Notes under the pieces: model-generated
The model's database searches: none
Seen by the model: the letters and a program-made list of their open reading frames with translations, nothing else
Told to the model about the DNA's origin: nothing
Origin: an uncultured Gemmatimonadales bacterium
GTDB taxonomy: Bacteria > Gemmatimonadota > Gemmatimonadetes > Gemmatimonadales > GWC2-71-9
Length of the DNA: 64,000 nucleotides
Assembly (NCBI GenBank): GCA_963792265.1
Contig: CAWBVP010000018.1
Coordinates: 16,841 to 80,840, forward strand
Reading direction: 5' to 3'
Program-made: the position numbers and the translations under genes
Shown here: in pieces, positions 4,607-60,007 of the stretch
Layout of the letters: each line of letters starts with the position of its first letter
How positions within the stretch are numbered: the first letter of the stretch is position 1

Positions 4607-5060
4607 CCAGTCTCCTGGGAAGGGAAGTCCCAAAATAGCACCACACTGCCCCCTCAGTGGGTCATTAAGTCCCCCCAGTATGCCGAAAGGGGCCATGGGC
4701 GGCGCGAAACGGTACCCATTGCCAGCCCCCAGGTGCGGTACACTGCTTGCAACCTTTCTGCCTCCGGAGGCGTCAAGCCCCTACATGGGGGGTGGGCCTC
4801 GGAGAGGAGCAGGAGCAGTCGTGTTCAGTTGCGATTACAACGGGTGGGCAGACGTGCCGGAAGAGGAGCGCGAGGGGATCGATGCCTTCGAAGCTGCCCC
4901 GGTTCCACCTCGTGCCGCGGTAAAGGTAACCCTCGCCCTGGCTCGTTCACTCCCCGGTTCCCCCGCGTCGCCCCAGCGAAAGGCTGCCTAGCTTTCTCCC
5001 TTCCTCGTGCCAGCCTGGCGCCAGTCATAGTGCCGAGCGGCCGCTAGATTATCCATCAAT

Positions 5061-7178: not shown

Positions 7179-7338
7179 GTGAGAGGTGAGAGGTGAGAGG
7201 TGAGAGGTGAGTGAGGGTGAGCTCTCGGCGCATTCGGGATCAAAGGGGATACGGTCGGTCGGCAAAACGTTGGGCGGGAGCAATCACCTCTCACCTCTCA
7301 CCTCTCACCTCTCACCTCTCACCTCTCACCTCCCACTC
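7179..7338. repeat. inverted heptamer arrays: (GTGAGAG)n left arm, 62-bp spacer, (TCACCTC)7 right arm
   Basis: Read directly. 7179-7221 is GTGAGAG x4, then GTGAGTG, then AGGGTGAG. 7284-7332 is TCACCTC x7. Confidence 0.95.
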
Positions 7339-8239: not shown

Positions 8240-8770
8240 TTACCGCTTACTCCACTGCGCCCGTTCCGCTTTGTCCCGATTGTCTTTCCACTTCTTGTAT
8301 TGCTTCTGCTGGTCCTTGCTCAAAATGTCCTTCAATCCGTTATCGAAGGTCTCGTCCTGCTTGGCCAGCTCCTTCGACTGCTGGTCCATTCGATCCCGCT
8401 GGTCCCGGGCGGCCGAGCGATCGCCGCTCTCGAAAGCAGCCCGCATGGTTTGCACCTCGCTCCGGAGACTGTCGCGGGTGACCTTGGTGTTGGCCATGTA
8501 ATTCTGATACCGGCGGGTGTAGGTCTGGAGTGGAGTGCCATTCAGCCCGATCGAGTCTCGCATCACGTCGGGAGCTGCCGGGCCTTCGATGGTCTCCGAC
8601 GAGAGCATCCGGGAGCCACCCCCGTGGGAGCCCATGTGGCGGCCGTACCCGCCTCCCGCCCGCATGCCTGGATTCCCCGGGCCGTATCCGCCAGGCGAGC
8701 TTTGAGCCAGCGACGTGCTCACGAGACCAGTCCCCAGGATCAAGAAAAAGCCTATGGTAGTCAAAGACAT
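8240..8770 (-). CDS. secreted protein, possibly a Spy/CpxP-like (LTXXQ-type) periplasmic protein
   Basis: Signal peptide MSLTTIGFFLILGTGLVSTSLAQ. The C-terminal half is helical and charged, with LSKDQQKQY. Confidence 0.45.
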   Translation of the reverse strand: MSLTTIGFFLILGTGLVSTSLAQSSPGGYGPGNPGMRAGGGYGRHMGSHGGGSRMLSSETIEGPAAPDVMRDSIGLNGTPLQTYTRRYQNYMANTKVTRDSLRSEVQTMRAAFESGDRSAARDQRDRMDQQSKELAKQDETFDNGLKDILSKDQQKQYKKWKDNRDKAERAQWSKR

Positions 8771-9057
8771 AAATGCACTCCGATCGGGCGGTTGGATGAT
8801 TGATAGCTCTGGCTGAGATACGGCCCGCAGGGTCGGTCCGTTGGCAGCCAGGCGTTGCTGCGCGCCCGCGACCGGAGCATTCTCCAGAACATGAAGATTG
8901 CTTTGGCACTGGGAAACTATCACCCGATTGGCGTGGCCCGCAAAGCCGTGTTGCCCAACGAAACAGCGGCTGTTGCGTATATCAGGTCGAGAGGGCCGGA
9001 CCGACCGAGCCACCGCGAGGAATTGGAGATTCGACTCAGAGGCACCGGCGGACCGCC

Positions 9058-15195: not shown

Positions 15196-15312
15196 GCGTG
15201 CTTAGCCTGAGGTGGAGTGGCCAGTGGGGCAGGGCAAGGCCCGCCGTCGGTCATCCTGCATAGTTACGAATCCAACATCCGAATTGGATTGGTTTCGCCG
15301 CCGGGATAGAGG

Positions 15313-15429
15313 GCTATTGGCCTATGCTATCGGCATTCGCTATTGGCTATTCGCAAAACGTCGGTGGAGTCCCAGCTGAGTTGGCCGAGCACTGAGCGCG
15401 ACGTAGCGGATAGCCAATAGCGATTACCG
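15313..15429. repeat. inverted repeat element with GCTATTGGC-type short repeats
   Basis: The left arm 15313-15354 contains TCGCTATTGGCTAT. The right arm 15406-15429 contains its complement ATAGCCAATAGCGA. The spacer is approx 51 bp. Confidence 0.85.
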
Positions 15430-28410: not shown

Positions 28411-30064
28411 TCAACTGCGGAGAAACTTCCTAGCTGTGGTAAGCTCCGGCCGCTCGCCGTCACTCTTGCTCATGCGCGCCAGGAACTCCCGGTAGGCGGC
28501 CTTCGCCGCTGTTCGGTTTCCGGCCAGCTCGGCCGCCCGGGCCGCGCCGAACAGGCTCCGCGCCCGTCCCGGCTCGCGTGCGAGCGTCACCTGATAAGCC
28601 CGCCTCGCTTCGACGTACCGTCCCGCTTCCAGCAGCATGTCGCCCTCCAGCTCCCGCGCCGGCAACAGCTCGGCCGGCGTCACCGGATGCTTGTCGGTGA
28701 CCTCCTCGGTGTCCGCCGCGGCCTTGGCCAGCGCCAGCCCGCCGGCGGTGTCGCCCTCGGCAAACATCACCCAGGCTCGAGCGGCGTCCCGCTTGATCCC
28801 CGCCACCCGCGACCAGTAGGGCTCCTTCTTCTCCGCCATCTGCGCCGCGATCGAGTCCAGCGCCGCCACCTCGGCCCGAGCCGCCGCCGGGTCTCCGCTC
28901 CGGGCCGCCCCGATGGCGCGGGTGAAGCGACTCAGCATGACCGGAGTCCCCACGCCCTGCATCGGCGCCACCGGAAACTTCGCCGCCGCCGCCCAGTCGC
29001 CGGTCTCCAGCGGGATCCTCGCCGCCATCGCGGTCCGGTTGTAATCGCCCACCAGGCTCTTGCCCGCCGGAACGTCCAGGCTCTGCGCTGTCGCGACCGT
29101 CGCCCGGGCGGCGGAGTCCTGGCCCCGCTGGAGATAGGCGTAGACCGCATAGTCGAGGGCGTGAAGCACCTCGCCCGGGGGAGGGATCCCCTGGCTTTTG
29201 GCGTTCGCCACGCCCGCCCGATACGCCACCAGGTTCGACGCGATGGCCTCGTCCCAGTAGCCCAGCCGGACGAAGATGTGCGACGGCATGTGCTGCGCGT
29301 GCGGCGCCGCCGGGGCGATCCGGGCGTAGCGCCGCGCGGCGCTCAGGCCCAGGTGCGCCAGCTGCGGCGAGTCGGTGGAGTGGATGATGTAGTGGGCCAG
29401 ACCGGGATGCTGGGGATAGCGCGCGAAGAGCGGATTGAGGATGGCGGCCGCCCGCTTCTGCTGGGCGAAGGTGGTGTCGGTCTTGGGCGCCGTGGCGTCG
29501 AGCGCCAGGGCGTAGAAGGTGGCGACCTCGGTGTCCTTGGGATAATCCCGGTACACCCGGGCCATGGTGTCGGCGTAGGCCTGGAGCCGGACGGCGTTGG
29601 GTGTCGCATCGGGATCGCGATAGAGCGCGGCCACCGCCGCGATGAATCCCCGCTCCCGCGGAGTCTTCGCCGACAGCGAGGACGCCCGGGCCGCCGCCTC
29701 GGCGCCTCGGCTAAGCGCAGCTCCGGTGGGGCCGCCGGCGAAGGGATTGCCCCAGGCGTTCAGCGCCAGGCCCCAGTGCGCCATGGCACAGGTGGAGTCG
29801 GCCTCCAGCACCCGGTTGAAAGCGGCGTCGCCCTCCTCCCACCAGAACGAGTGCAGCACCGCCATGGCCCGCTCGAACCGGCGCCCGGCCTCCGGCGCTG
29901 CAGGAGACCGGAAAGGTGACCTGGCCCAGCTTGCCGAGCTGGTGAGCCTGGGCCGCGTGATCGTCGTGCTCGTGAACCTGAGCCTGGACGGGGGAAGCCA
30001 GAACCAGCACGGTTCCAACCACAACCAGAGCCAAACCCCTCGATCTCACGGCCGACCTCCGCAT
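28411..30064 (-). pseudogene. secreted TPR-like repeat protein, frameshift near 29905
   Basis: 537-aa helical-repeat ORF. The signal peptide MRRSAVRSRGLALVVVGTVLVLASPVQA (ATG 30064) is in another frame. Confidence 0.6.
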
Positions 30065-30172
30065 GCGGGACCACGGCGAAAATAGGGCGCGACAGGGACA
30101 ACCTGCACGCCGGCAACGACATCCACCAGTCCGCCAGTGAACGCCATCACTTTGCAGAGAGAGCAGAACTTT

Positions 30173-30781
30173 GCCAGGGACACGCAGATCGTCGCCAGGG
30201 ACACGCAGATCGTTGCCAGGGTCGCGCAGATCGGCGACAGGAACAGACGGATCCTCGCCCGAAACTGCCAGATCCTCGCCAGGCTCAGCCACCGACCTGC
30301 CACGCTCAGCGTGATCGGCGCCAGACTCAGCGTGATCGGCGTCAGACTCAGCGTGATCGGCGCCAGAGTCAGCGTGATTGCCGCCAGACTCAGCGTGATC
30401 CCCGCCAGGGTCAGCGCAGATCCCGCCAGGACTCAGCGCTGATCCCCGCCCAGGGACAGCGCAGATCCGCCGACAGCGAATTGCCAGAGTCCGCGTGATC
30501 GGCGACCGATTGCCAGACTCAGCGTGATCGGCGCCAGACTCAGCGTGATCGCCGCCAGACTCAGCGTGATCCCCGCCAGGGTCACGCAGATCTCGTCGAG
30601 CGCCGCAGACACGCCAGACCAGCATGAACTGCGCCAGACTCAGCGTGATCCCGCCAGACAGCTGATCGGCGCCAGACAGGTGATCGCCGCCAGAGCTCGC
30701 CGTGATCGGCGCCAGGGACAGCGTGATCGCCGCCAGGACAGCAGCGTGATCGCCGCCAGGACTCAGCCACGGATGCCCGGG
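30173..30781. repeat. degenerate 21-bp tandem array (consensus GCCAGACTCAGCGTGATCGGC), about 27 units
   Basis: Parsed by hand. Units 1-12 (30173-30424) are exactly 21 bp. Later units are 18-32 bp. By my count 23 of 27 units contain GATC. Confidence 0.95.
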
Positions 30782-30792
30782 AGTAAAGCGCT

Positions 30793-32184
30793 TCATTCCT
30801 CTGGCAGAAGCTCCTTGCGCGAGTACAACACCCCGTTCCGGATGACCGAGCGCACCTGGCGCGCGTTGTGGATGTCGGCGGTGGGGTCGGCGTCGAAGAC
30901 GACCAGGTCGGCCCGCTTCCCGGTCGCGATCGAGCCGACCTCCCGGTCCAGCGCCATCGCTCTGGCCGCGACGATCGTCGCTGAGGCGAACACCGCTCCC
31001 GCCGGCATGCCCGCCTGTTGCATCAATTCCATTTCCCGGTAGACGCTGGGCCCGTGCGCCGTGCCGGGATTGCCGGCGTCAGTCCCCATGGCAATCGGGA
31101 TGCCGGCCCGGTACATCCTCCGAAGGTTCGCCATCGAAGTGGTCATGAGGCTCGCGGCCCGGGGACTGGTCCAGAAGGCGTTCCCCCGCTTTCGGAGGCT
31201 GTCGGGCAGCACGGTCTCCAGCTTGCGCCGGGTGACCGGATCGACGCAATCGAGCGGATAGCGCAGCCCGGGTGATCGGCCGGCAAAGACATCCGCGTAC
31301 CCCTCCAACACCGTCAAGGTCGGGATCACGATGGTGCCGTTCCGCCGGGCCGCCTGAATGAACGCCGCATCCACGTTGCCCTCTTCCACATCGTGTACCA
31401 GAACGTTGGCTCCGGCTTCGAGCGCGTCCTTGGCACTGGGAAGCTCGGTGGCGTGGACGATCAGCCGGAGTCCCGCCTTCCGGGTCTCGTCTCCCGCCGC
31501 CATCAGCATGGCCTTGGCATGAGCATGCAGCGAGTCGGGGACCTGGATGTACCAGACCTTGATCGCCTCCGCGCCGCCGGCCTTGTGCTCCCGCACCGCT
31601 CGGCGCACGGTCTCCTCGTCGGACATGAACACGAACTGGCCCATCATCTGGGGGTCCACGGTGATGGTGGCGAGTAGCGGACCAACCGCGACAACCCGGG
31701 GCGCGTCGCCGGCCGAGCGGGTCCTGCGGTCCAGATCGTAGGTCCAGGGGAATCCTCCGACATCGAACACGGTGGTAACACCGCTGCAGAGGTTTGCCCG
31801 GTGAAAGCGTTCGGGGTGTTGCTCCAGGGAGCGGACGACCGAGTCGTACGGATACTGGGCCCGGAGATCGATGGCGTCCGGACGGCCGTCTACCCATCCC
31901 GTCTGTCCGTAATGCACGTGAGCATCGATGAGCCCGGGTCCCAGGTAACTCCCCCTCAGGTCCACCGGCTTCGAGCCGGCCGGGCGGGGACACGCGGTCG
32001 CCGTGCCGGCGCAGACGATGCGGCCATCGCGAATAACGACGCTCGCATCCGGTATGGGATGGCGGTTCGGATTGATGAGAGTCGCGTGCTGCAGCGTCAG
32101 CGCGGGTGCGACCTGCGCCGTGGCGCCGATCGCGGTGGTGAGAAGGAAGCCGAGCACCGCCAGCAATCTCCAGCTCTGGTGCAT
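30793..32184 (-). CDS. secreted amidohydrolase-family metal-dependent hydrolase
   Basis: Signal peptide MHQSWRLLAVLGFLLTTAIGATAQ. GLIDAHVHYG metal-binding motif. C-terminal ADLVVFDADP. Confidence 0.85.
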   Translation of the reverse strand: MHQSWRLLAVLGFLLTTAIGATAQVAPALTLQHATLINPNRHPIPDASVVIRDGRIVCAGTATACPRPAGSKPVDLRGSYLGPGLIDAHVHYGQTGWVDGRPDAIDLRAQYPYDSVVRSLEQHPERFHRANLCSGVTTVFDVGGFPWTYDLDRRTRSAGDAPRVVAVGPLLATITVDPQMMGQFVFMSDEETVRRAVREHKAGGAEAIKVWYIQVPDSLHAHAKAMLMAAGDETRKAGLRLIVHATELPSAKDALEAGANVLVHDVEEGNVDAAFIQAARRNGTIVIPTLTVLEGYADVFAGRSPGLRYPLDCVDPVTRRKLETVLPDSLRKRGNAFWTSPRAASLMTTSMANLRRMYRAGIPIAMGTDAGNPGTAHGPSVYREMELMQQAGMPAGAVFASATIVAARAMALDREVGSIATGKRADLVVFDADPTADIHNARQVRSVIRNGVLYSRKELLPEE

Positions 32185-33127: not shown

Positions 33128-33153
33128 GAGAAACTCCTTGGAGGAGGAGAGCC

Positions 33154-33209
33154 GGGAGCTGGGAGTGGGAGAATGCTGGGAGTGAGCGCATAGCGGATAG
33201 CGCATAGCT
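33154..33209. repeat. heptamer-phased array GGGAGCT GGGAGTG GGAGAAT GCTGGGA GTGAGCG CATAGCG GATAGCG CATAGCT
   Basis: Read directly, upstream of the GlcG-like gene. I found no inverted partner nearby. Confidence 0.7.
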
Positions 33210-33512: not shown

Positions 33513-36344
33513 ATGAGCCCAACCGTAACCCGTCGCAACCTCCACCTCCTCAATCGGGCATTGGTCCTTGGCCTGCTGGCCTGTGCCGGAGGGGACTCGC
33601 TGGTGGTCCCGCCCGGTAGCGGAACCCTGCAGATCACCACCACGACCGACGGCGTCGAGCCTGATGGAGATGGCTATACGGTGCAGGTGGACGCGGCGCC
33701 CCCCGAGGCAGTGGCGTCGAGCGGGTCTCTCACCCGTGCGGTCAGTCCGGGAACGCACTCGGTGCTGCTCGCCGGCATAGCGCCGAACTGCAGCGTTGCG
33801 GTCGCCAATCCCAATAGCATCACTGTTCAGACCGGCCAGACGACGACCTTCACCTTCCAGGTGACCTGCGCTGCCACGACTGGCGGTCTTCAGGTCTCCG
33901 CCGCCACCCGGGGTCCGTCGCTCGACCCCGATGGCTACAGTATCACGCTCGACGGCGCGGACCAGGGAGCTCTGGGGGTGAATGGGTCCGTCACCCTGCC
34001 GGCTCTGGCTCCGGGAGCCCACGTCGTCGGCCTCGGCGGGATTGCCGGGAACTGCCAGCTGCAGGGGGATAACCTGCGGGACGTAACGATCGCCGCGGGA
34101 GCCAACGCCACCGTCGCCTTTGAAGTGACCTGCGCCGCTCCGCCCCCCAACTCAGGCACGCTGCGGATCACGACGGCCACAACCGGCTCGGATCCTGACC
34201 CGGATGGGTACCGATTTACGGTCGACGGAGGCTCCGACCAGCCGATCGGCACCAATGGGGTGACCACCCTGAACAACTTTGCGCCCGGGACGCACGCCGT
34301 GTTGCTCACCGGGGTGGCCGGTAACTGCTCGGTCCAGGGACTGAACCCCCGCTCGGCTTCACTGGCGGCGGGAGGCACCGCGGATTTCAGCTTTGCGGTT
34401 TCCTGCGCTTCAACGTCCGGTGGAATCCGGGTGAGCGTCGCCACCTCGGGAGCATCCAGTGACCCCGATGGTTACGCCGTGCAGTTGGATGGGATTAGTC
34501 CGGGCCAGCGCGTCGCGACCACCGGCAATGTGAGCTTCAACGGAGTTTCGGCGGGGGCTCACACGGTCGCTCTGAGCGATCTCTCGGTCAACTGCACGGT
34601 TGCCGGGGAGCTGTCCAGGAACGTCTCAGTAACCGTGGGGGCGACCAGCGATATCAGCTTCTCGGTTACTTGCCGGCCGACCGGTGGCGCGGCCCTCGAG
34701 AAGGTCTCCGGGGATGCCCAGACCGGCACCGCCGGGGCTGTGCTCGGAGCTCCGCTGGTGGTCAAAGTCAGCGATGTCATTGGGAATCCGGTCCCGGGGG
34801 CGGCTATCACCTGGAGCATTACCGGCGGTGGGAGCCTCAGTGCAACCTCATCCCTGACGGGCGCGGACGGCCAGGCGTCGGTCACCCGAACTCTGGGCGG
34901 CACTGCCGGGCAGCAGACCACCCTCGCCACCGCCGACGGCCTGGTCGGCTCCCCTTTGACCTTTACTCATACCGCTACCGGGGCCAGCACCGGAATGGGG
35001 CGTTGGGACGCGGCGTTTTCGACGCCGGTGGTCGACGTGCACATGCACCTGCTGGCGACGGGGAAGGTGCTCATGTGGGGTGACCGGGGGGACGCGCAGC
35101 TGTGGGATCCGGCGAATCCCCGTGCCGGCTTCACCCCGGTGACCAAGACCTTCCGGATGTACTGCAGCGGTCACACCATTCTCCGGGATGGCCGGCTGCT
35201 GGTGGTGGGAGGCACCAGCGCCAGCACCCGAGGGCTGCGGCTGGCCACGATCTTCGATCCAGCATCGGGAAGCTGGAGCGCCACCAGCTCGATGGCGCAG
35301 GGCCGCTACTATCCGACCATCACTTCCCTCCCTGACGGCGAGGTTCTGGCGGTCTCCGGCCATGACACCACGCTGGCCGACGTCACCATCCCCGAGGTCT
35401 GGAATGGGAGTGCCTGGCGCCAGCTGACCACCGCCCCGCTGGCGATCCCCAATCCGTATTACCCGGCCATGTTCGTCGCGCCGAACGGCAAGGTGTTCCT
35501 GGCCGGCTTCCCCCAGACCTCCCAGTATCTCGATGTCACCGGAACCGGCCAGTGGATCCCGGTGGCGGAACGCAATGTGGCCGACCGGACCATGGGATCT
35601 GCGGTGATGTACGCCCCGGGCAAGATCCTGTACGCCGGCGGTGGCGACCCACCCACCGCATCGGCCGAGGTGATCGATCTCAACCAGCCGGCCCCCTCGT
35701 GGCGCAGCGTCCAGGGGATGGCGTTCCCCCGCCGCCAGATGAATGCGACGCTGCTGGCGGACGGCAGTGTGCTGGTGACCGGCGGCACCAGCGGCCCGGG
35801 GTTCAACAGCCAGGCGGGTGCGGTCCACGAGGCCGAGCTGTGGAACCCCCAGACCGAGACCTGGACGATGATGGCTCCGGAGAGCAAGACCCGAACCTAT
35901 CATGGGACGGCCTTGCTGTTGCCCAGCGGGAAAGTGCTCTCCAGCGGCAGCGGTGAGGGTGGGGGCATAGCCTTCGCCAACAGCGAGTTCTCGGCTCAGG
36001 TGTTCAGCCCGCCCTACCTGTTCAATGCCGACGGCAGCCCGGCCGCACGGCCGACGATCACCTCGGCGCCTTCCACGCTCTCCTACGGCCAGCTGTTCAC
36101 CGTCCAGACGCCCGATGCGGGCGCCGTCACCCGGGGCACTCTGATCCGGCTCTCCTCCGTCACCCACGCGTTCAACATGAGCCAGCTGATCTATGGGCTG
36201 ACGTTCGCGGCCACGAGCCAGTCGACGGTAAGCGCCACCGCGCCGCCCAATGCCACCATCGCGCCCCCGGGGCCGTACATGCTCTTCCTGATCAATGGGG
36301 CGGGAACTCCTTCGGTGGCGAAGATCGTCATGGTCGGCCCCTAG
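33513..36344 (+). CDS. large lipoprotein: 4 repeated approx 85-aa modules, an Ig-like domain, and a glyoxal/galactose-oxidase-like Kelch propeller with DUF1929 C-terminus
   Basis: LGLLACAGG lipobox. The modules repeat G.L.I...DPDGY...PG.H.V.L.G.A.NC...F.V.C. The C-terminal half has MYCSGHTILRDGRLLVVGG, YYPTITSLPDGEVLAVSG, TYHGTALLLPSGKVLSSGSG and PGPYMLFLINGAGTPSVAKIVMV. Confidence 0.85.
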   Translation: MSPTVTRRNLHLLNRALVLGLLACAGGDSLVVPPGSGTLQITTTTDGVEPDGDGYTVQVDAAPPEAVASSGSLTRAVSPGTHSVLLAGIAPNCSVAVANPNSITVQTGQTTTFTFQVTCAATTGGLQVSAATRGPSLDPDGYSITLDGADQGALGVNGSVTLPALAPGAHVVGLGGIAGNCQLQGDNLRDVTIAAGANATVAFEVTCAAPPPNSGTLRITTATTGSDPDPDGYRFTVDGGSDQPIGTNGVTTLNNFAPGTHAVLLTGVAGNCSVQGLNPRSASLAAGGTADFSFAVSCASTSGGIRVSVATSGASSDPDGYAVQLDGISPGQRVATTGNVSFNGVSAGAHTVALSDLSVNCTVAGELSRNVSVTVGATSDISFSVTCRPTGGAALEKVSGDAQTGTAGAVLGAPLVVKVSDVIGNPVPGAAITWSITGGGSLSATSSLTGADGQASVTRTLGGTAGQQTTLATADGLVGSPLTFTHTATGASTGMGRWDAAFSTPVVDVHMHLLATGKVLMWGDRGDAQLWDPANPRAGFTPVTKTFRMYCSGHTILRDGRLLVVGGTSASTRGLRLATIFDPASGSWSATSSMAQGRYYPTITSLPDGEVLAVSGHDTTLADVTIPEVWNGSAWRQLTTAPLAIPNPYYPAMFVAPNGKVFLAGFPQTSQYLDVTGTGQWIPVAERNVADRTMGSAVMYAPGKILYAGGGDPPTASAEVIDLNQPAPSWRSVQGMAFPRRQMNATLLADGSVLVTGGTSGPGFNSQAGAVHEAELWNPQTETWTMMAPESKTRTYHGTALLLPSGKVLSSGSGEGGGIAFANSEFSAQVFSPPYLFNADGSPAARPTITSAPSTLSYGQLFTVQTPDAGAVTRGTLIRLSSVTHAFNMSQLIYGLTFAATSQSTVSATAPPNATIAPPGPYMLFLINGAGTPSVAKIVMVGP

Positions 36345-36400
36345 GCCGGAGGCATCCGGCTTCTTGCGGCCCGGCGCGTCAGGCTTCAACATGTACCCCC

Positions 36401-37735
36401 ATGCGCCGCCTTCTCGTAGCCACCGCGTTCGTGTTGTTGACCGGTCAGCCGCTCCAGGCCCAGCACCTCAAGGACAAGCTCTCCGAGCTGTTCATCTTCG
36501 GATCCAATGGCGTCCCGCTCAACCTGGGCGGCAGCAGCAGTCCCAACAATCCCGCGTCGGTCCAGATCCACGGCAACCATTTCATCCCGGCGGCGGTCGC
36601 CAGTAACGGCACCATCATCTCGTTCCTGACCAACTCGATCGGCAGCAACGTCTCCAACGTCCCGGTGAGCGCCACCAGTGGCGGCTCCACGTTCAGCTTT
36701 CAGGGTGGCGTGCCCACCCGGACGTCGACCTCCTCGGGCCCGATCCTCGGCGAGCGGGCTCAGACCCTGGGCCGGGGCCGGATGCTCGCGGGCCTTGCCC
36801 GCACCGGCGTGCACTTCAAGACCCTCCGGGGGGTGGATCTCAACCATCTGCGCTTCACCTTCACCCACGCCAATACCGACTTCCCGGGGTGCGACTCGAT
36901 TGCCGGCGGAGACTGCTCCCTGCTCGGGCGTCCCCACGCTGGAGAACGAAACGATCGACCTGAACCTCGCGCTGGACGTCCAGCTCAACGTGACTTCCTT
37001 CCTGCTCACCTACGGCGTGAGCGACCGGATCGACGTGGGTGTCGTCCTCCCACTGGTGTCGATCTCGTTCGACGGCACCAGCAACGCGCAGATCAATCCC
37101 TTCGGCCCGCCACCCGCGGTGCACTTCTTCGGCGGGACTCCGGACAATCCCATTCTCACCGCCAGCCGGACCGTGGATGGGTCTTCCACCGGTCTGGGCG
37201 ACGTCGATGGCCGGGTCAAGGTGAGCCTCCGCCGGGGAGAGCCGCTCTCGGTCTCAGTGCTGGGTGACGTCCGCTTCCCCACCGGCAGCGAAAGCAACCT
37301 GCTCGGCTCCGGCGCCTGGGCGGCTCGAGGACTTGCCATCCTCTCGGCCCACTTCGGCGCCTTCTCGCCCCACGCGAACTTCGGCTACCTCTACCGCGGC
37401 GGCCAATTCGAGAACGACGCGGTGCTGGCGACGCTCGGCTTCGACCACCTCATGGCGCCCTGGGCGACGCTGGCCATCGACGTCCTGTCGGCGCTGCAGG
37501 TGGGCGAGAGCCCGCTCCAGGTGCCCGGCCCGGTGATGTCGAGGCCCCCTACCACCGGGAGATCATCCCCACGGTGATTCCCGACAGCCGGGACGATATT
37601 GTCGTGGGCTCGGTGGGCATGAAACTCACCGCTGCGTCTGGACTCACCTTCGTGGCTAACGGGGGATGGTCGCTTAATCGTGGTGGATTACGGCCCGACG
37701 TGATTTGGACGGGAGGGTTAGAGTACAACTTCTAG
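36401..37735 (+). pseudogene. outer-membrane beta-barrel protein, frame changes near 36930 and 37535
   Basis: Signal peptide MRRLLVATAFVLLTGQPLQAQ. Alternating beta-strand pattern. The terminal ...GGLEYNF aromatic residue is in a third frame. Its TAG stop at 37733 sits in a TCTAGGG repeat-like unit. Confidence 0.6.
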
Positions 37736-38202
37736 GGTGAGCAGAGAGCTGTGAGCTAGTGGGTCTAGGGTCTAGGGTCTGGGGTCTAGGTCGAGGGAAG
37801 ATGCCCGTTGGCTTGGCAGGTAGCGCCTGGTGGAGTTTCTGGAGCATGCCGCGTATAGAGTGGATCTCAGCAACAATGCCCGACGCAACCGGTGACTCTA
37901 GGTATCGCAGGTCACCTGCCAAAAGCAGTTCGCATTCAAGTTCTGAGAGCGAGCCCAGACTGATTCGAACGAAGCGTCTGAGCTCGATGTCTCCCATGCG
38001 ACCGCAACCTTCTGCGAGGTTTGCTCGACACCGACACAGCTGCACGGCGCATTTGAGAGCTGAGGCCATACCGCTCCGCAGAGGGGAAAGTGCCGGTCAG
38101 TTTGTAGACTGAAGCCACCAGCTTCTGGCTCTTCTGCCAGACTTCGAGCTTCCTGAAATCCCCCACCATCTCCCTCCAGCTTGCGTCTCCGACAATCTTC
38201 AT
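37674..38202 (-). pseudogene. four-helix-bundle protein (23S rRNA intervening-sequence protein / Avd-like family), frameshift near 38035, 3' end uncertain
   Basis: DFRKLEVWQKSQKLVASVYKLTGTFPSAERYGLSSQMRRAAVSV continues in another frame as ANLAEGCGRMGDIELRRFVRISLGSLSELECELLLAGDLRYL. As read, the ORF runs through the left arm to 37674. The other two frames hit TAG inside the arm. Confidence 0.8.
37756..37795. repeat. left arm of cassette: GGGTCTA GGGTCTA GGGTCTG GGGTCTA GGTCGAG
   Basis: Read directly. The heptamers occupy 37761-37795. Confidence 0.95.
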
Positions 38203-38252
38203 TTCTCGAGACTAAAAGCATTAATGCTCTCACCCAAGTCGGATCATTTTTG

Positions 38253-38290
38253 CGCTAGACCCTAGACCCTAGACCCTAGACCTCACCTCA
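38253..38290. repeat. right arm of cassette: TAGACCC x3, TAGACCT, then CACCTCACC
   Basis: Read directly. 38255-38282 is the reverse complement of the left arm. Confidence 0.95.
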
Positions 38291-39918
38291 CCTGACTGAT
38301 CCTCCACTTTCCCCCTTCGTTCCTGAACGACGCATGGAATGACACCGGCTGGCTCTCGGTGCGCCCGGTGCTGGTGTTAAGGTAGGTATAGGTGCCGGTG
38401 ACCTGGGCGTCGGCCGTTCCGCCGGAGACGTCGAGCCCTGCGATCGAGAGGCCGGGCTTTCACGTCGCGCACCAGCTGGAAGAACTGCTCCCAACCTCGC
38501 GCTTGCAGCCCCGTCATCGCGGGGTAAGCCCGTTGCAGGCCCGGAAGGCTCTTCGCCTCGATGGCCTGGGCGTACTCGGCAATCACCCCCCTGATTTCGG
38601 CTGCATGATCTGCAGCCTTGGCAGGCAGGGGGGCCGGAGCAACTGGCGGCGTGGTCGCCGCCGGGGGTGGCGGAGCGGGTGGCGTTACCGGTGGGGGCTC
38701 CGCCGCCGCCGTAACGGCAAGGGATTCCGGCGCCACTGCGGGGGTGGGCTTGGCCGGCTCGGCCCGGGGCCGTTCGCGCCGGGTGATCTTCGAGCGCGGT
38801 GCATCCGCTGTGACTGGTGAGGGAGCCGCCGGTGGCGCCACGGCGGCCGGTTGCGGTGGCGGCACGGCCAGGCCGGTGTCAGCGGAGGCCGAAGCTCCCG
38901 GCAAGGGGATGGCAGCCGGCGAGGTGCGTCTGAGCCACATCGCTCCTCCCGCCAGCAGCAGCACCAACGCCAGCAGTGCTGCCGGAACCAGCCACTTCCG
39001 TTTGCGGGCGCTCGGCTCCGAATGGACCGGTAGGCGCACCGCCGAGGTAGCCGACGTTCCTCCACTCGGTGTTGCGATTGCATCGAGCAGGTGCATCACC
39101 TGGGACGCCGTCTGCGGACGATCCGCCGGCCGCTTGGCCAGACAATCTCTCACCAATGCAGCCAGCATCGGCGGAACCGCGGGGCGGCGGCGCTCGACCG
39201 GCTCGGGCTCCTCGATCACGTGAGCGGCAAGCATCTGCTGGGCCGAGCGCCCGCTCAAAGGGGGGATGCCCGGTGAGCATCTCGTACGCGACGACGCCGA
39301 GGGAGTAGAGGTCGGCCCGGTGATCAATATTGGGGCTCGCGGTGGCCTGCTCCGGGGCCATGTACGCCGGGGTGCCAAGCGCGACTCCGAGCGAGGTGAG
39401 GCCGGGTACCGGTACCCGCGGAAGCGCTCGACCGCCTTGGCGACGCCGAAGTCGGTGACGACGGCGACCCCGCCGGAAAGGAGCACGTTGTCGGGCTTGA
39501 CGTCGCGGTGGATCACGCCGTTGCCGTGGGCGTACGCCAGAGCGGACACGACGTCGCGCAGGATGCGAACGGTCTCCGCGACCGGGAACTCTCCTTCCCG
39601 GGCCACTCGAGCCCGCAGCGACTCCCCGGTCACAAATGGCATGATGAAATACGGCAGACCATCAGCTTCGCCGGCTGACAAGAGGGGAACGATGTGAGGA
39701 TGTTGCAGCTGGGCGGCGAGCTGGATCTCCCGGCGGAACCGCTCCACATTGACGGCGGCGGTCAGCTCGGGGAGGAGCACCTTCACCACGACCTTTCGGC
39801 CGAGGACGCGGTCGAGCGCGACGAAGACGCGGGACATCCCGCCGCCGCCGAGCTCGCGCTCCAGGAGATAGGCTTCTCCCAGCGCCCGCTGTAGCTGTTC
39901 CTGCAGGGTGCTGCTCAC
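38283..39918 (-). pseudogene. Ser/Thr protein kinase with TM segment, Pro/Ala-rich linker and C-terminal NTF2/SnoaL-like domain; several frame changes
   Basis: GGGGMSRVFVALD...[18 protein letters not shown] and [18 protein letters not shown]...[19 protein letters not shown] is in another frame. The C-terminus ...LSIAGLDVSGGTADAQVTGTYTY...FRNEGGKWRISQVR is in a third. The GTG start at 39918 overlaps the sigma gene TGA (GTGA). Confidence 0.8.
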
Positions 39919-41190
39919 GATCTCACGGTCCGAAGGAGACCGGAATTTAGAGATCGGGAGAGGAGATGGCCACCTGTAGACGCTCCCAGCCTCCCTTCGA
40001 TGAACCGCCGCTGCGGCTCCTGCCGGGTGAGCTCGAGGGCCGTTCGGTAGGACTCGATCGCTTCTGCCGTTCGCCCCAGCCGCCGACACAGCTCCGCCCG
40101 CGCCGAGTGGGCCAGGCGCATAGTCGCGCCAGCTCGCCCCGGCCGAGAATCTCGTCGATCAGCTCCAGCCCTCGCGCGGGCCCATCCCGCATGGCGATCG
40201 CCGCCGCCCGGTTGAGCTCCACCACCGGAGATGGCTCGGCCCGGAGCAGCACGTCGTACAGCCCGACGATCTCCTCCCAGTCGGTGGCCTCCGGTGCCGG
40301 CGCCTCGGCGTGGAGTGCAGCGATGGCCGCCTGCAAGGTGTAGGGGCCGAATTGCCGGGAGCCCAGCGCCCGTTCGACCAGAGCCACGCCTTCGGCGATC
40401 TGTTCCCGATTCCAGCGCGAGCGGTCCTGCTCCGCCAACAGGACCAGCTCGCCGTCGGCGGTGGTGCGGGCCGCGCGACGCGACTCGTGCAGCAGCATCA
40501 ACGCCAGGAGTCCCAGCGCCTCCGGCTCCGGCAGCAGCTCGACCAGCAACCGCCCCAGCCGGATGGCCTCGCCGAGAGGTCGTGCCGGGTCAGCGGTGGC
40601 GCCGGAGGAGGCGGAGTAGCCCTCGTTGAAGACCAGGTAAATGACGTGGAGCACGGTGTCCAGCCGCTCCGGCAGATCGGCCCGCGCCGGACCTGATAGG
40701 GAATCTTTGCGGCCTGGATCTTGGCCTTGGCCCGCACGATCCGCTGCGCCAGGGTGGGCGCGGGCGATGAGGAACGCCCGGGCGATCTCCTCGGTGGTGA
40801 GACCGCAGACCTCCCGCAGGGTAAGCGCGATCTGGGCGTCGGGCGGCAGGGCGGGGTGGCAGCAGGTGAAGATGAGCCGGAGCCGGTCGTCGTCGACCCC
40901 CTCGTCGTCCAGCTCGATGCGCCGGGGTGACGCCGTCGCCCAGACGCTCGGCCACGACGCGAGCGAGGCGTCGAACCTCGCCCGCCGGCGCAATCTGTCG
41001 ATGGCCTTGAAGCGGCCGGTGGAGACCAGCCAGGCCCGGGGATTGGCGGCACCCCGTCCGCCGGCCAGCGCTCCACCGCCGCCGCGAAGGCGTCCTGCAG
41101 CGCCTCCTCGGCCAGATCGAAATCGCCGAGGAGGCGGATGAGGGTGGCCAGGACCCGCCGAGATTCTGCCCGGAAGAGCTCTTCGATCAC
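39915..41190 (-). pseudogene. ECF-like sigma-70 family factor with long C-terminal helical domain; several frame changes
   Basis: LFRAESRRVLATLIRLLGDFDLAEEALQDAF ... NPRAWLVSTGRFKAIDRLRRR ... ALTLREVCGLTTEEIARAF ... VIYLVFNEGY ... GPYTLQAAIAALHAEAP ... RAELCRRLGRTAEAIESYRTALEL. Confidence 0.8.
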
Positions 41191-59930: not shown

Positions 59931-60007
59931 AGTAAGAGGTGAGAAGTGAGAGGTGAGAGGGGTGTCAACCTGATCCTCTCGCCTCTCACCTCTCACCCCT
60001 CACTCGC
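59931..60007. repeat. imperfect hairpin built from GTGAGAG-type heptamers
   Basis: AGTAAGAGGTGAGAAGTGAGAGGTGAGAGGGGTG, 10-nt loop, CCTCTCGCCTCTCACCTCTCACCCCTCACTCGC. The right arm contains the TGA stop (60000) of the upstream gene. Confidence 0.9.

Follow-up and report, generated by a model that had tools for sequence, protein, structure and literature searches.

What is a gene of the four-helix-bundle family PF05635 (TIGR02436), the family of the S23p open reading frame (ORF) of 23S rRNA intervening sequences (IVS), doing between two protein-coding genes of a Gemmatimonadales bacterium, and why is it enclosed by inverted arrays of a 7-nt unit? The question is raised by a 64,000-nt stretch of contig CAWBVP010000018.1 (hereafter the window), in which such a cassette occupies the gap between an outer-membrane-protein (OMP) gene and a Ser/Thr protein kinase gene. 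The initial annotation of this DNA had proposed an IVS-like, stem-bounded gene cassette living outside rRNA. As far as the layout is concerned the proposal has been borne out, since the same arrangement recurs at other Gemmatimonadales sites, at most of 84 independent loci of the gene family from many lineages, in Xanthomonas and in finished cyanobacterial genomes. We consider, with clear reservations, that the element is probably one member of a widespread class of IVS-type, stem-bounded four-helix-bundle cassettes located between protein-coding genes. Several observations carry this explanation, among them that the arms are true inverted copies of each other, matched unit by unit even at variable positions, that a period of 7 marks the flanks of this gene family specifically, and that one orthologous junction has the element, a gene-less form or nothing. 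The class of PF05635 genes lying between inverted 7-nt arrays is apparently undescribed so far.

Structure of the cassette

The arms (Table 1) had been described as inverted heptamer arrays, and this reading proved to be correct. An inverted-repeat search returned arms of 28 nt that are 96% complementary and separated by 465 nt, and Tandem Repeats Finder (TRF) reported both as arrays of period 7 with 4.3 and 4.0 copies. The 14-mer of the arms occurs 7 times in the window, where 0.25 occurrences are expected, and none of 100 shuffles contained as many. Read on the strand of the gene, the left arm is the downstream (TAGACCC)n arm. In the predicted folds of the cassette, the long-range terminal stem closed in both the minimum free energy (MFE) and the centroid structures of both strands (z = -5.6 and -5.0). 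In the MFE structures, the GTGAG of the degenerate units next to the left arm can lengthen this stem by outer pairs with CTCAC at 38283-38295.

The cassette had also been said to fill exactly the space between the two convergent stop codons. This is true on the kinase side, where the TGA abuts the right arm, but not on the OMP side, where 25 nt of degenerate heptamers separate the stop from the perfect units. In the same way, the statement that either arm presents TAG in all three frames of both strands holds for the right arm and fails for the left one, in which the variant unit GGGTCTG leaves one frame open on each strand; the frameshifted four-helix-bundle ORF in fact reads through it.

The sole cargo between the arms is, as proposed, a four-helix-bundle gene on the minus strand. 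Its reading frame is not intact in the window, owing to two 1-nt indels: an extra base in 38020-38025 and a missing G at 37789-37790, where the G run is one short compared with CCTCGACCCTAG in relatives. After repair of one frameshift, the product scored 113.2 bits against PF05635 (cutoff 33.8) and 105.9 bits against TIGR02436 (cutoff 24). The OMP gene (36401-37735) is likewise split into three frame segments by two frameshifts, and the kinase gene (38283-40089) into at least two, which indicates that the window assembly is noisy. It is probably a long-read-only assembly, and the two indels in the four-helix-bundle gene are most likely sequencing errors. The start codon assigned initially, ATG 38202, sits in a block that relatives keep as non-coding leader (the AAGATTGTCG block). 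From the alignment of relatives, the gene probably starts at ATG 38169 (or GTG 38166), and its natural stop is predicted to be the first TAG of the downstream array (37788-37786).

The nearest solved structure is that of XCC0516 from Xanthomonas campestris (PDB 2GSC, E = 1e-21), a toroidal homopentamer, and by likeness to it the window protein may have the same architecture. The score against NF033474, the profile of Avd, was 17.5 bits, far under the equivalog cutoff of 80. A defence system was rejected because the PADLOC profiles gave no match to the window protein, and a phage origin because a tblastn search of 50,697 phage records at 1e-5 gave none either. The conserved leader may represent the own promoter and ribosome-binding region of the Gemmatimonadales cassettes, judging from its conservation. 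A sigma-70 scan returned a single site, which lies within the four-helix-bundle ORF.

No transposase ORF is present in the cassette, and neither a direct repeat outside the arms nor a target-site duplication was seen at it. Positions 37600-38400 contain 0 terminator-like sites. A known RNA family was also discarded, as there were no Rfam matches in 36000-40000 at E <= 1, and the flanks of the cassette are the OMP and kinase genes, not one of the 23S rRNA helices (9, 25 or 45) that can hold an IVS.

Table 1. Features of the cassette and gene-less inverted pairs in the window
Feature	Position	Strand	Remarks
OMP gene stop, TAG	37733-37735	+	PF13557-like outer-membrane-protein gene
Degenerate heptamer-like units GGTGAGC AGAGAGC TGTGAGC TAGT	37736-37760		25 nt between OMP stop and first perfect unit
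Left arm, GGGTCTA GGGTCTA GGGTCTG GGGTCTA	37761-37788 (annotated to 37790)		Third unit is GGGTCTG
Four-helix-bundle gene (PF05635 / TIGR02436)	37786-38169 (ends probable)	-	Repaired product of ~127 aa
Conserved leader, GCGCrAAtTTGATCC ... AGCAGTA ... AAGATTGTCGG ... GGAGGGAG	38170-38254	-	From alignment of relatives
Right arm, TAGACCC x3 + TAGACCT	38255-38282		Upstream (GGGTCTA)n arm when read on the strand of the gene
Ser/Thr protein kinase gene stop, TGA	38283-38285	-	Adjoins right arm; kinase match ends at 38286
Gene-less inverted pair, (GTGAGAG)x4.7, 72-nt spacer, (TCACCTC)x7.6	7179-7211 and 7284-7336		Found by TRF
Gene-less inverted pair, (AGAGGTG)x4, 14-nt loop, (CCTCTCA)x4	59931-59960 and 59975-60003		GTGAGAG-type unit

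The genes around the cassette in the window encode a galactose-oxidase-like protein, the OMP, the kinase and an ECF sigma/DUF6596 protein.

Occupied, gene-less and empty sites in related Gemmatimonadales

Close homologues of the protein, 62-90% identical, were recovered together with their DNA (loci are designated here by L numbers), and they place the cassette at three Gemmatimonadales sites. At the kinase/OMP site of the window, the same cassette is present in L030-L039 and in L002, the latter having 7 units against 3. A second site lies between M23 peptidase and Trm112-like genes (L001, L003-5, L010 and L011), and at a third one, in L020-29, L040 and L008, the cassette is flanked by the genes of CoaE and thymidine kinase. 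On the gene's strand the order is constant, (GGGTCKA)n being followed by the conserved leader, which is ~85-110 nt long, and by the ORF, whose stop lies within (TAGACCC)n. At the M23/Trm112-like and CoaE/thymidine kinase sites, the cassette is found in both orientations relative to the same neighbours. Identical proteins occur in one context only; in the case of the identical protein P0034, the downstream array varies by one or two units between samples. The unit itself is different in other loci: L012, from a more distant Gemmatimonadales (53% identity), has ~15 units of AGCTAAC/AGCTATC against 9 units of the exact complement, and a Chloroflexota copy has TAGTCNN and NNGACTA. No reverse transcriptase or RVT domain and no template/variable repeats were found among the neighbours, either in the window or in the relatives. 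The inverted copy in L001 shows a further peculiarity (4855-4983), an additional TAGACCC-type array between a leader-like spacer and the ORF, so that arrays of one and the same orientation lie on both sides of the ORF, with the inverted partner 68 nt further upstream.

Using the conserved OMP, we have located the orthologous junction in relatives. An empty site, which the insertion proposal called for, does exist: in L123 and L124 the OMP/kinase junction consists of 24 nt without repeats. In L120, which lies on the contig that has a cassette at the M23 site (L001), the junction contains three CAGTYRC units and no gene. In L121 it contains gene-less inverted arrays, (GAGTCGG)x7 and (TCCYGAC)x4 separated by 110 nt, showing that the arms are not strictly tied to the gene. 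The three occupied sites cluster together in a tree of the OMP, and thus the element at this site looks old and vertically inherited. A rough, identity-based tree of the four-helix-bundle protein disagrees with the insertion site, suggesting copying or gene conversion between sites.

Inverted arrays of period 7 in a survey of 84 loci of the gene family

To examine the family in general, 80 metagenome loci were picked solely by two conserved peptide motifs of the protein; together with genome loci, 84 independent loci had enough flank for analysis. Complementarity was measured as the ungapped score between the 150 nt upstream of the gene and the 145 nt spanning its stop. Most other copies of the gene are also bracketed by complementary flanks, a score of at least 12 being reached in 61/84 loci, compared with 18% of mismatched pairs. 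Since repeat arrays resist the unbiased alignment of register that a covariation count needs, we have compared each upstream flank with its own and with all other downstream partners. The own partner was the best among 84 in 28 loci. In the group of units with a YAGC core it was the best in 13/30 loci, a number that 0/5000 permutations reached, and this result means that the variable unit positions are matched between both arms of a locus.

The periodicity is equally specific. The only enriched lags are 7 and 14, found in 40/84 upstream and 51/84 downstream flanks and in 19/1062 control windows of the same loci (Fisher p = 7e-36 and 4e-50, respectively). The arms have a median length of 30 nt, with 88% Watson-Crick pairs, and 51/56 measure at least 20 nt. 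They adjoin the neighbouring ORFs in the surveyed loci. Between the upstream arm and the beginning of the protein match there are 33 nt in the median, and in 35/56 loci the stop codon is inside the downstream arm or in contact with it. The unit sequences vary between lineages and agree within a locus, and the polarity is fixed, with the YAGB core in the upstream arm in 38 loci vs 6. None of 40 related loci is located in rRNA. In L042, a SAM-alpha riboswitch (RF00521, 49 bits; 1278-1351) lies ~45 nt upstream of the upstream arm of the cassette (1394-1423).

Finished genomes of Xanthomonas and cyanobacteria

In X. campestris and X. sacchari, close homologues of XCC0516 (86% and 72% identical) are encoded by genes that separate accB from accC and are bracketed by 30-nt arms of GGGAATC type (L133, 1930-2375; L136, 1990-2435). 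The 30-bp stem is mismatched at every seventh position in L133 and largely so in L136. Read from the sequence, L133 has a GTG start codon inside the 5' arm and the ATG of accC directly after the 3' arm.

The 19 plasmid records with a homologue are all cyanobacterial. The layout is present on plasmids of Nostoc, Anabaena, Calothrix and Picosynechococcus, and several of the plasmid cassettes lie inside operons (L125, L127, L128 and L132). The gene is found between those of the beta and alpha subunits of ribonucleotide reductase in Nostoc edaphicum (TAGGGAG x9 vs TCCCTAC x5), between cas6 and cas4 in Anabaena sp. 90 (inverted GGTGACA arrays) and in Pseudanabaena galeata, and between cas10/cmr2 and cmr3 in Picosynechococcus PCC 7003. 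IVS-type insertions are tolerated, then, inside essential operons and CRISPR-Cas operons; this implies that host transcripts can in general accommodate a foreign gene by looping it out. On plasmids alpha and gamma of Nostoc PCC 7120 (L129 and L130), the identical protein WP_010994075.1 adjoins a transposase gene, annotated as ISL3 family on the gamma plasmid, and only a downstream (CTCTGCC)n array is present; these copies give the impression that the upstream arm was replaced or that an insertion sequence carries the gene. Culturable organisms such as these make the question testable, for example at the accB-accC junction of Xanthomonas or in Nostoc PCC 7120.

Comparison with known systems

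The architecture joins three literatures that have been separate: the 23S rRNA IVS with its orphan S23p ORF; the PF05635 family, a very large, function-less family with many copies in cyanobacteria, Xanthomonas and soil bacteria; and the tandem heptamer repeats. The cassettes share with the 23S rRNA IVS of Coxiella burnetii, and also of Leptospira and Brucella, a length of ~430-520 nt, a PF05635 member as sole ORF and terminal inverted repeats that form a stem of ~28 bp enclosing the whole element. The Coxiella IVS, of 428-444 nt, encodes S23p and has a 28-bp terminal stem that RNase III cuts mid-stem (PMC4990558). Its 5' region carries the heptamer GACAGAT in two to three tandem copies, a variable number, and the 5' cut of RNase III falls at the start of the first repeat; the authors noted these heptamers and did not generalise the observation (PMC4990558). 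The variable number recalls the unit-count variation among the relatives of the window element. In contrast to the rRNA IVS, the window element lies outside rRNA between convergent protein-coding genes, uses the unit GGGTCTA and has a leader that may be a promoter; moreover, its processing by RNase III is putative.

Heptamer repeats have been described as the cyanobacterial short tandemly repeated repetitive sequences (STRR) and as TAACTGA in Beggiatoaceae, cyanobacteria and Bacteroidetes (PMC4679880), and heptamers have been reported to outnumber all other intergenic repeats in prokaryotes, their function being unknown (10.1101/309039). Like the cassette arms, these are tandem intergenic units of 7 nt with variable copy number that often touch start or stop codons. 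The window unit GGGTCTA matches neither TAACTGA nor the published STRR units; TCAGTTA, the reverse complement of TAACTGA, is used by two other related loci, L017 and L081. Unlike the arrays reported so far, which are isolated and direct, those described here form inverted pairs around one gene family. The TAACTGA paper mentions neither a four-helix-bundle gene nor an inverted pairing around a gene (PMC4679880), and in open-access text we found no paper linking heptamer repeats to the PF05635 family, although it may have been described earlier elsewhere. A wider possibility, which we advance only tentatively, is that the PF05635 proteins are the missing partner of the intergenic heptamer repeats (STRR, TAACTGA and others). 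Gene-bearing hairpins would then be the autonomous members, and gene-less hairpins or arrays the non-autonomous ones, of a single family of genetic elements looped out at the RNA level; the 23S IVS would be a special case that happened to be noticed first, and the protein would recognise the stem of 7-nt periodicity and join in its processing, maintenance or spread.

The window protein belongs to the same four-helix-bundle superfamily as Avd of the diversity-generating retroelements (DGR), as its weak NF033474 match indicates, but this match is under the cutoff and neither a reverse transcriptase nor template/variable repeats are nearby. The genes of close XCC0516 homologues are flanked by inverted heptamer arrays like that of the window, and differ in the unit (GGGAATC), in the mismatch at each seventh stem position and in the start codon inside the 5' arm. 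The cassettes also resemble repetitive extragenic palindromes and bacterial interspersed mosaic elements (REP/BIME) and miniature inverted-repeat transposable elements (MITEs), which are short, palindromic and intergenic, are found in operons or between convergent genes and have dispersed gene-less copies. However, the arms are here arrays of tandem heptamers instead of a fixed palindrome, no RAYT or transposase accompanies them, there is no evident target-site duplication, and the cargo is a non-enzymatic four-helix bundle. A transposon was rejected because there is no transposase and no target-site duplication and because identical proteins occur in a single context.

Gene-less arrays and other cargo

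Inverted heptamer pairs without the gene occur in the window itself (Table 1). The pair at 7179-7336, which is of the same structure class as the cassette arms with a different unit, fills the space separating two minus-strand genes, one CarboxypepD_reg-like and the other encoding a response regulator. The pair at 59931-60003 is located between two minus-strand genes as well, for an amine oxidase (stop 60000) and a glycosyl hydrolase (start 59920). A third, weaker pair may be present at 15312-15422, where a degenerate GCTATTG/GCTATCG array (15312-15351) is followed ~50 nt further on by GATAGCCAATAGC (15404-15422). In relatives there are gene-less hairpins of the GGGTCTA unit (L001, 1222-1368; L007, 805-916), and the gene-less arrays share units with the cassette arms of the same metagenome-assembled genome (MAG). 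L001 has in addition a gene-less GGGCTAT / ATAGCCC pair (8738-8852), whose unit flanks the four-helix-bundle gene of another organism in L041.

The gene-less elements had been suggested to be miniature derivatives of the cassette. The sequences gave no support to this idea: the spacers of the elements in the window (7212-7283) and in L121 have no homology to the cassette interior, the local alignments scoring no better than shuffles, and the gene-less pairs of the window are built on GTGAGAG, unlike the GGGTCTA of the cassette. A likeness of the gene-less spacers to the leader in the form of 'GCGCA..GATC' was considered and discarded as not significant. In L090, inverted (CCATCCC)n and (GGGGRTR)n arrays (1940-2600) surround a gene that appears cheB-like from its N-terminal translation, and such arms can therefore enclose other cargo.

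Proposed mechanism

Whenever a transcript of either strand runs through the cassette, the two arms would pair into a duplex of ~20-60 bp, looping the cassette out. RNase III probably cuts this duplex, as it does in the rRNA IVS. The enzyme needs roughly two helical turns, and the stem length exceeds that. An insertion of this type would fit an rRNA helix, the interior of an operon or the gap between convergent genes, and would be tolerated in such places because the base of the stem would keep the two ends of the host RNA next to each other. The arrays would grow and shrink by slippage, which would explain the variation in unit counts, while selection for pairing, gene conversion between the arms, or both, would keep the arms complementary. 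The shared arms would also provide homology for inversion, loss or copying of the cassette between hairpin sites, and the two orientations would be due to recombination through the inverted arms. The protein, which is presumably pentameric and related to Avd, the factor that binds RNA in DGRs, probably exerts its function on the RNA or DNA of these repeats.

Several points weigh against the interpretation as an IVS-type, stem-bounded cassette. RNase III cleavage is extrapolated from the rRNA IVS. After excision, the IVS RNA of Coxiella is quickly broken down, and S23p is apparently not made, so that any benefit of the stem to the protein is hypothetical. A promoter may lie in the leader, downstream of the 5' arm; in that case, the mRNA of the gene would not include that arm, and only read-through transcripts would form the stem. 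About one quarter of the 84 loci have no clear arms, and in one of the cyanobacterial plasmid loci (L127, Pseudanabaena) the arrays are direct instead of inverted, with at least 17 AAAGCTA units upstream (425-594) and ~9 AAAGCCA units downstream (955-1060) of the gene. Inverted heptamer arrays also exist without a four-helix-bundle gene, once around the cheB-like gene. The G·U mismatches of the stems exceed the A·C ones on the sense strand by 55 vs 37 (p = 0.08), a weak excess that does not distinguish pairing in the sense RNA from concerted evolution at the DNA level. The excess of upstream neighbours co-oriented with the gene is similarly weak (33 vs 19, p = 0.07).

Alternative explanations

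It is possible, although we find it rather doubtful, that the arrays are RNA or DNA binding sites of the four-helix-bundle pentamer, serving autoregulation or marking a 'home' site, that the gene-less arrays are its other targets and that arm pairing is secondary. The fixed polarity of the YAGB core relative to the gene across very different units would be expected of such sites, and the kinship with Avd, which works with nucleic acid in DGRs, agrees with them. The toroidal homopentamer formed by the Xanthomonas homologue and the typical array size of 3-5 units are also in its favour, and the mismatch at each seventh position of the Xanthomonas stem resembles a periodic recognition feature and not an optimised helix. 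The units shared by gene-less arrays and cassette arms of one MAG fit as well, and earlier authors had proposed that an unknown protein binds such repeats. However, a pure binding-site model does not require the variable unit positions to be matched between the arms, as they are, and several units coexist in one genome (GGGTCTA, GTGAGAG and GCTATTG in the window). The binding-site and stem models are not mutually exclusive.

We regard as unlikely that the arms work at the DNA level only, serving the recombination or cruciform formation of a selfish element, which would propagate, change orientation and disappear through homologous recombination or replication slippage, RNA pairing being a by-product. 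The occupation of two sites in both orientations, the junction that is filled, gene-less or empty across relatives, a protein tree that does not follow the site and the unit counts that are polymorphic between samples are all in line with it, and the near-symmetry of G·U and A·C mismatches is what DNA homogenisation predicts. However, the sole relative studied experimentally, the rRNA IVS, is processed as RNA. The position of the arms against the stop and start codons of the neighbours and of cassettes in essential operons (accBC) suggests selection on transcript behaviour, and there is no transposase, no target-site duplication and no sign of recent mobility, identical proteins being always in one context.

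It is very improbable that the hairpins are ordinary intergenic terminators or insulators enclosing the four-helix-bundle gene by chance, as the gene-less pairs of the window and the gene-less arms at the same junction of one relative could suggest. The ~30-fold enrichment at the gene family over other positions of the same loci and the recurrence of the layout in several phyla with unrelated units contradict this idea; moreover, the stems are far longer than those of intrinsic terminators and have no T-tract, in agreement with the lack of terminator-like sites around the window cassette. An artefact of noisy long-read assembly, which the many 1-nt frameshifts of the window might suggest and which does make exact unit counts uncertain, is effectively refuted, since the same arms are present in finished isolate genomes and in dozens of short-read metagenomes that were assembled independently. 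A G-quadruplex was rejected too: (GGGTCTA)4 fits G3N4G3N4G3N4G3, yet most units of the family have no G-runs (AGCTATC, CAGTTGT, GGCTATG), and thus it cannot be the general principle.

Other repeats in the window

Two further repeat regions were noticed in the window. About 600 nt of tandem repeats whose period is 21/42, a multiple of 7, lie at 30163-30767, within a 361-aa minus-strand ORF (29711-30796) that has no Pfam match. At 33149-33208, ~270 nt upstream of the galactose-oxidase-like gene (start 33480), there are two adjacent short arrays of period 7, GAGCTGG and then AGCGCAT, which are unrelated and not mutually complementary.

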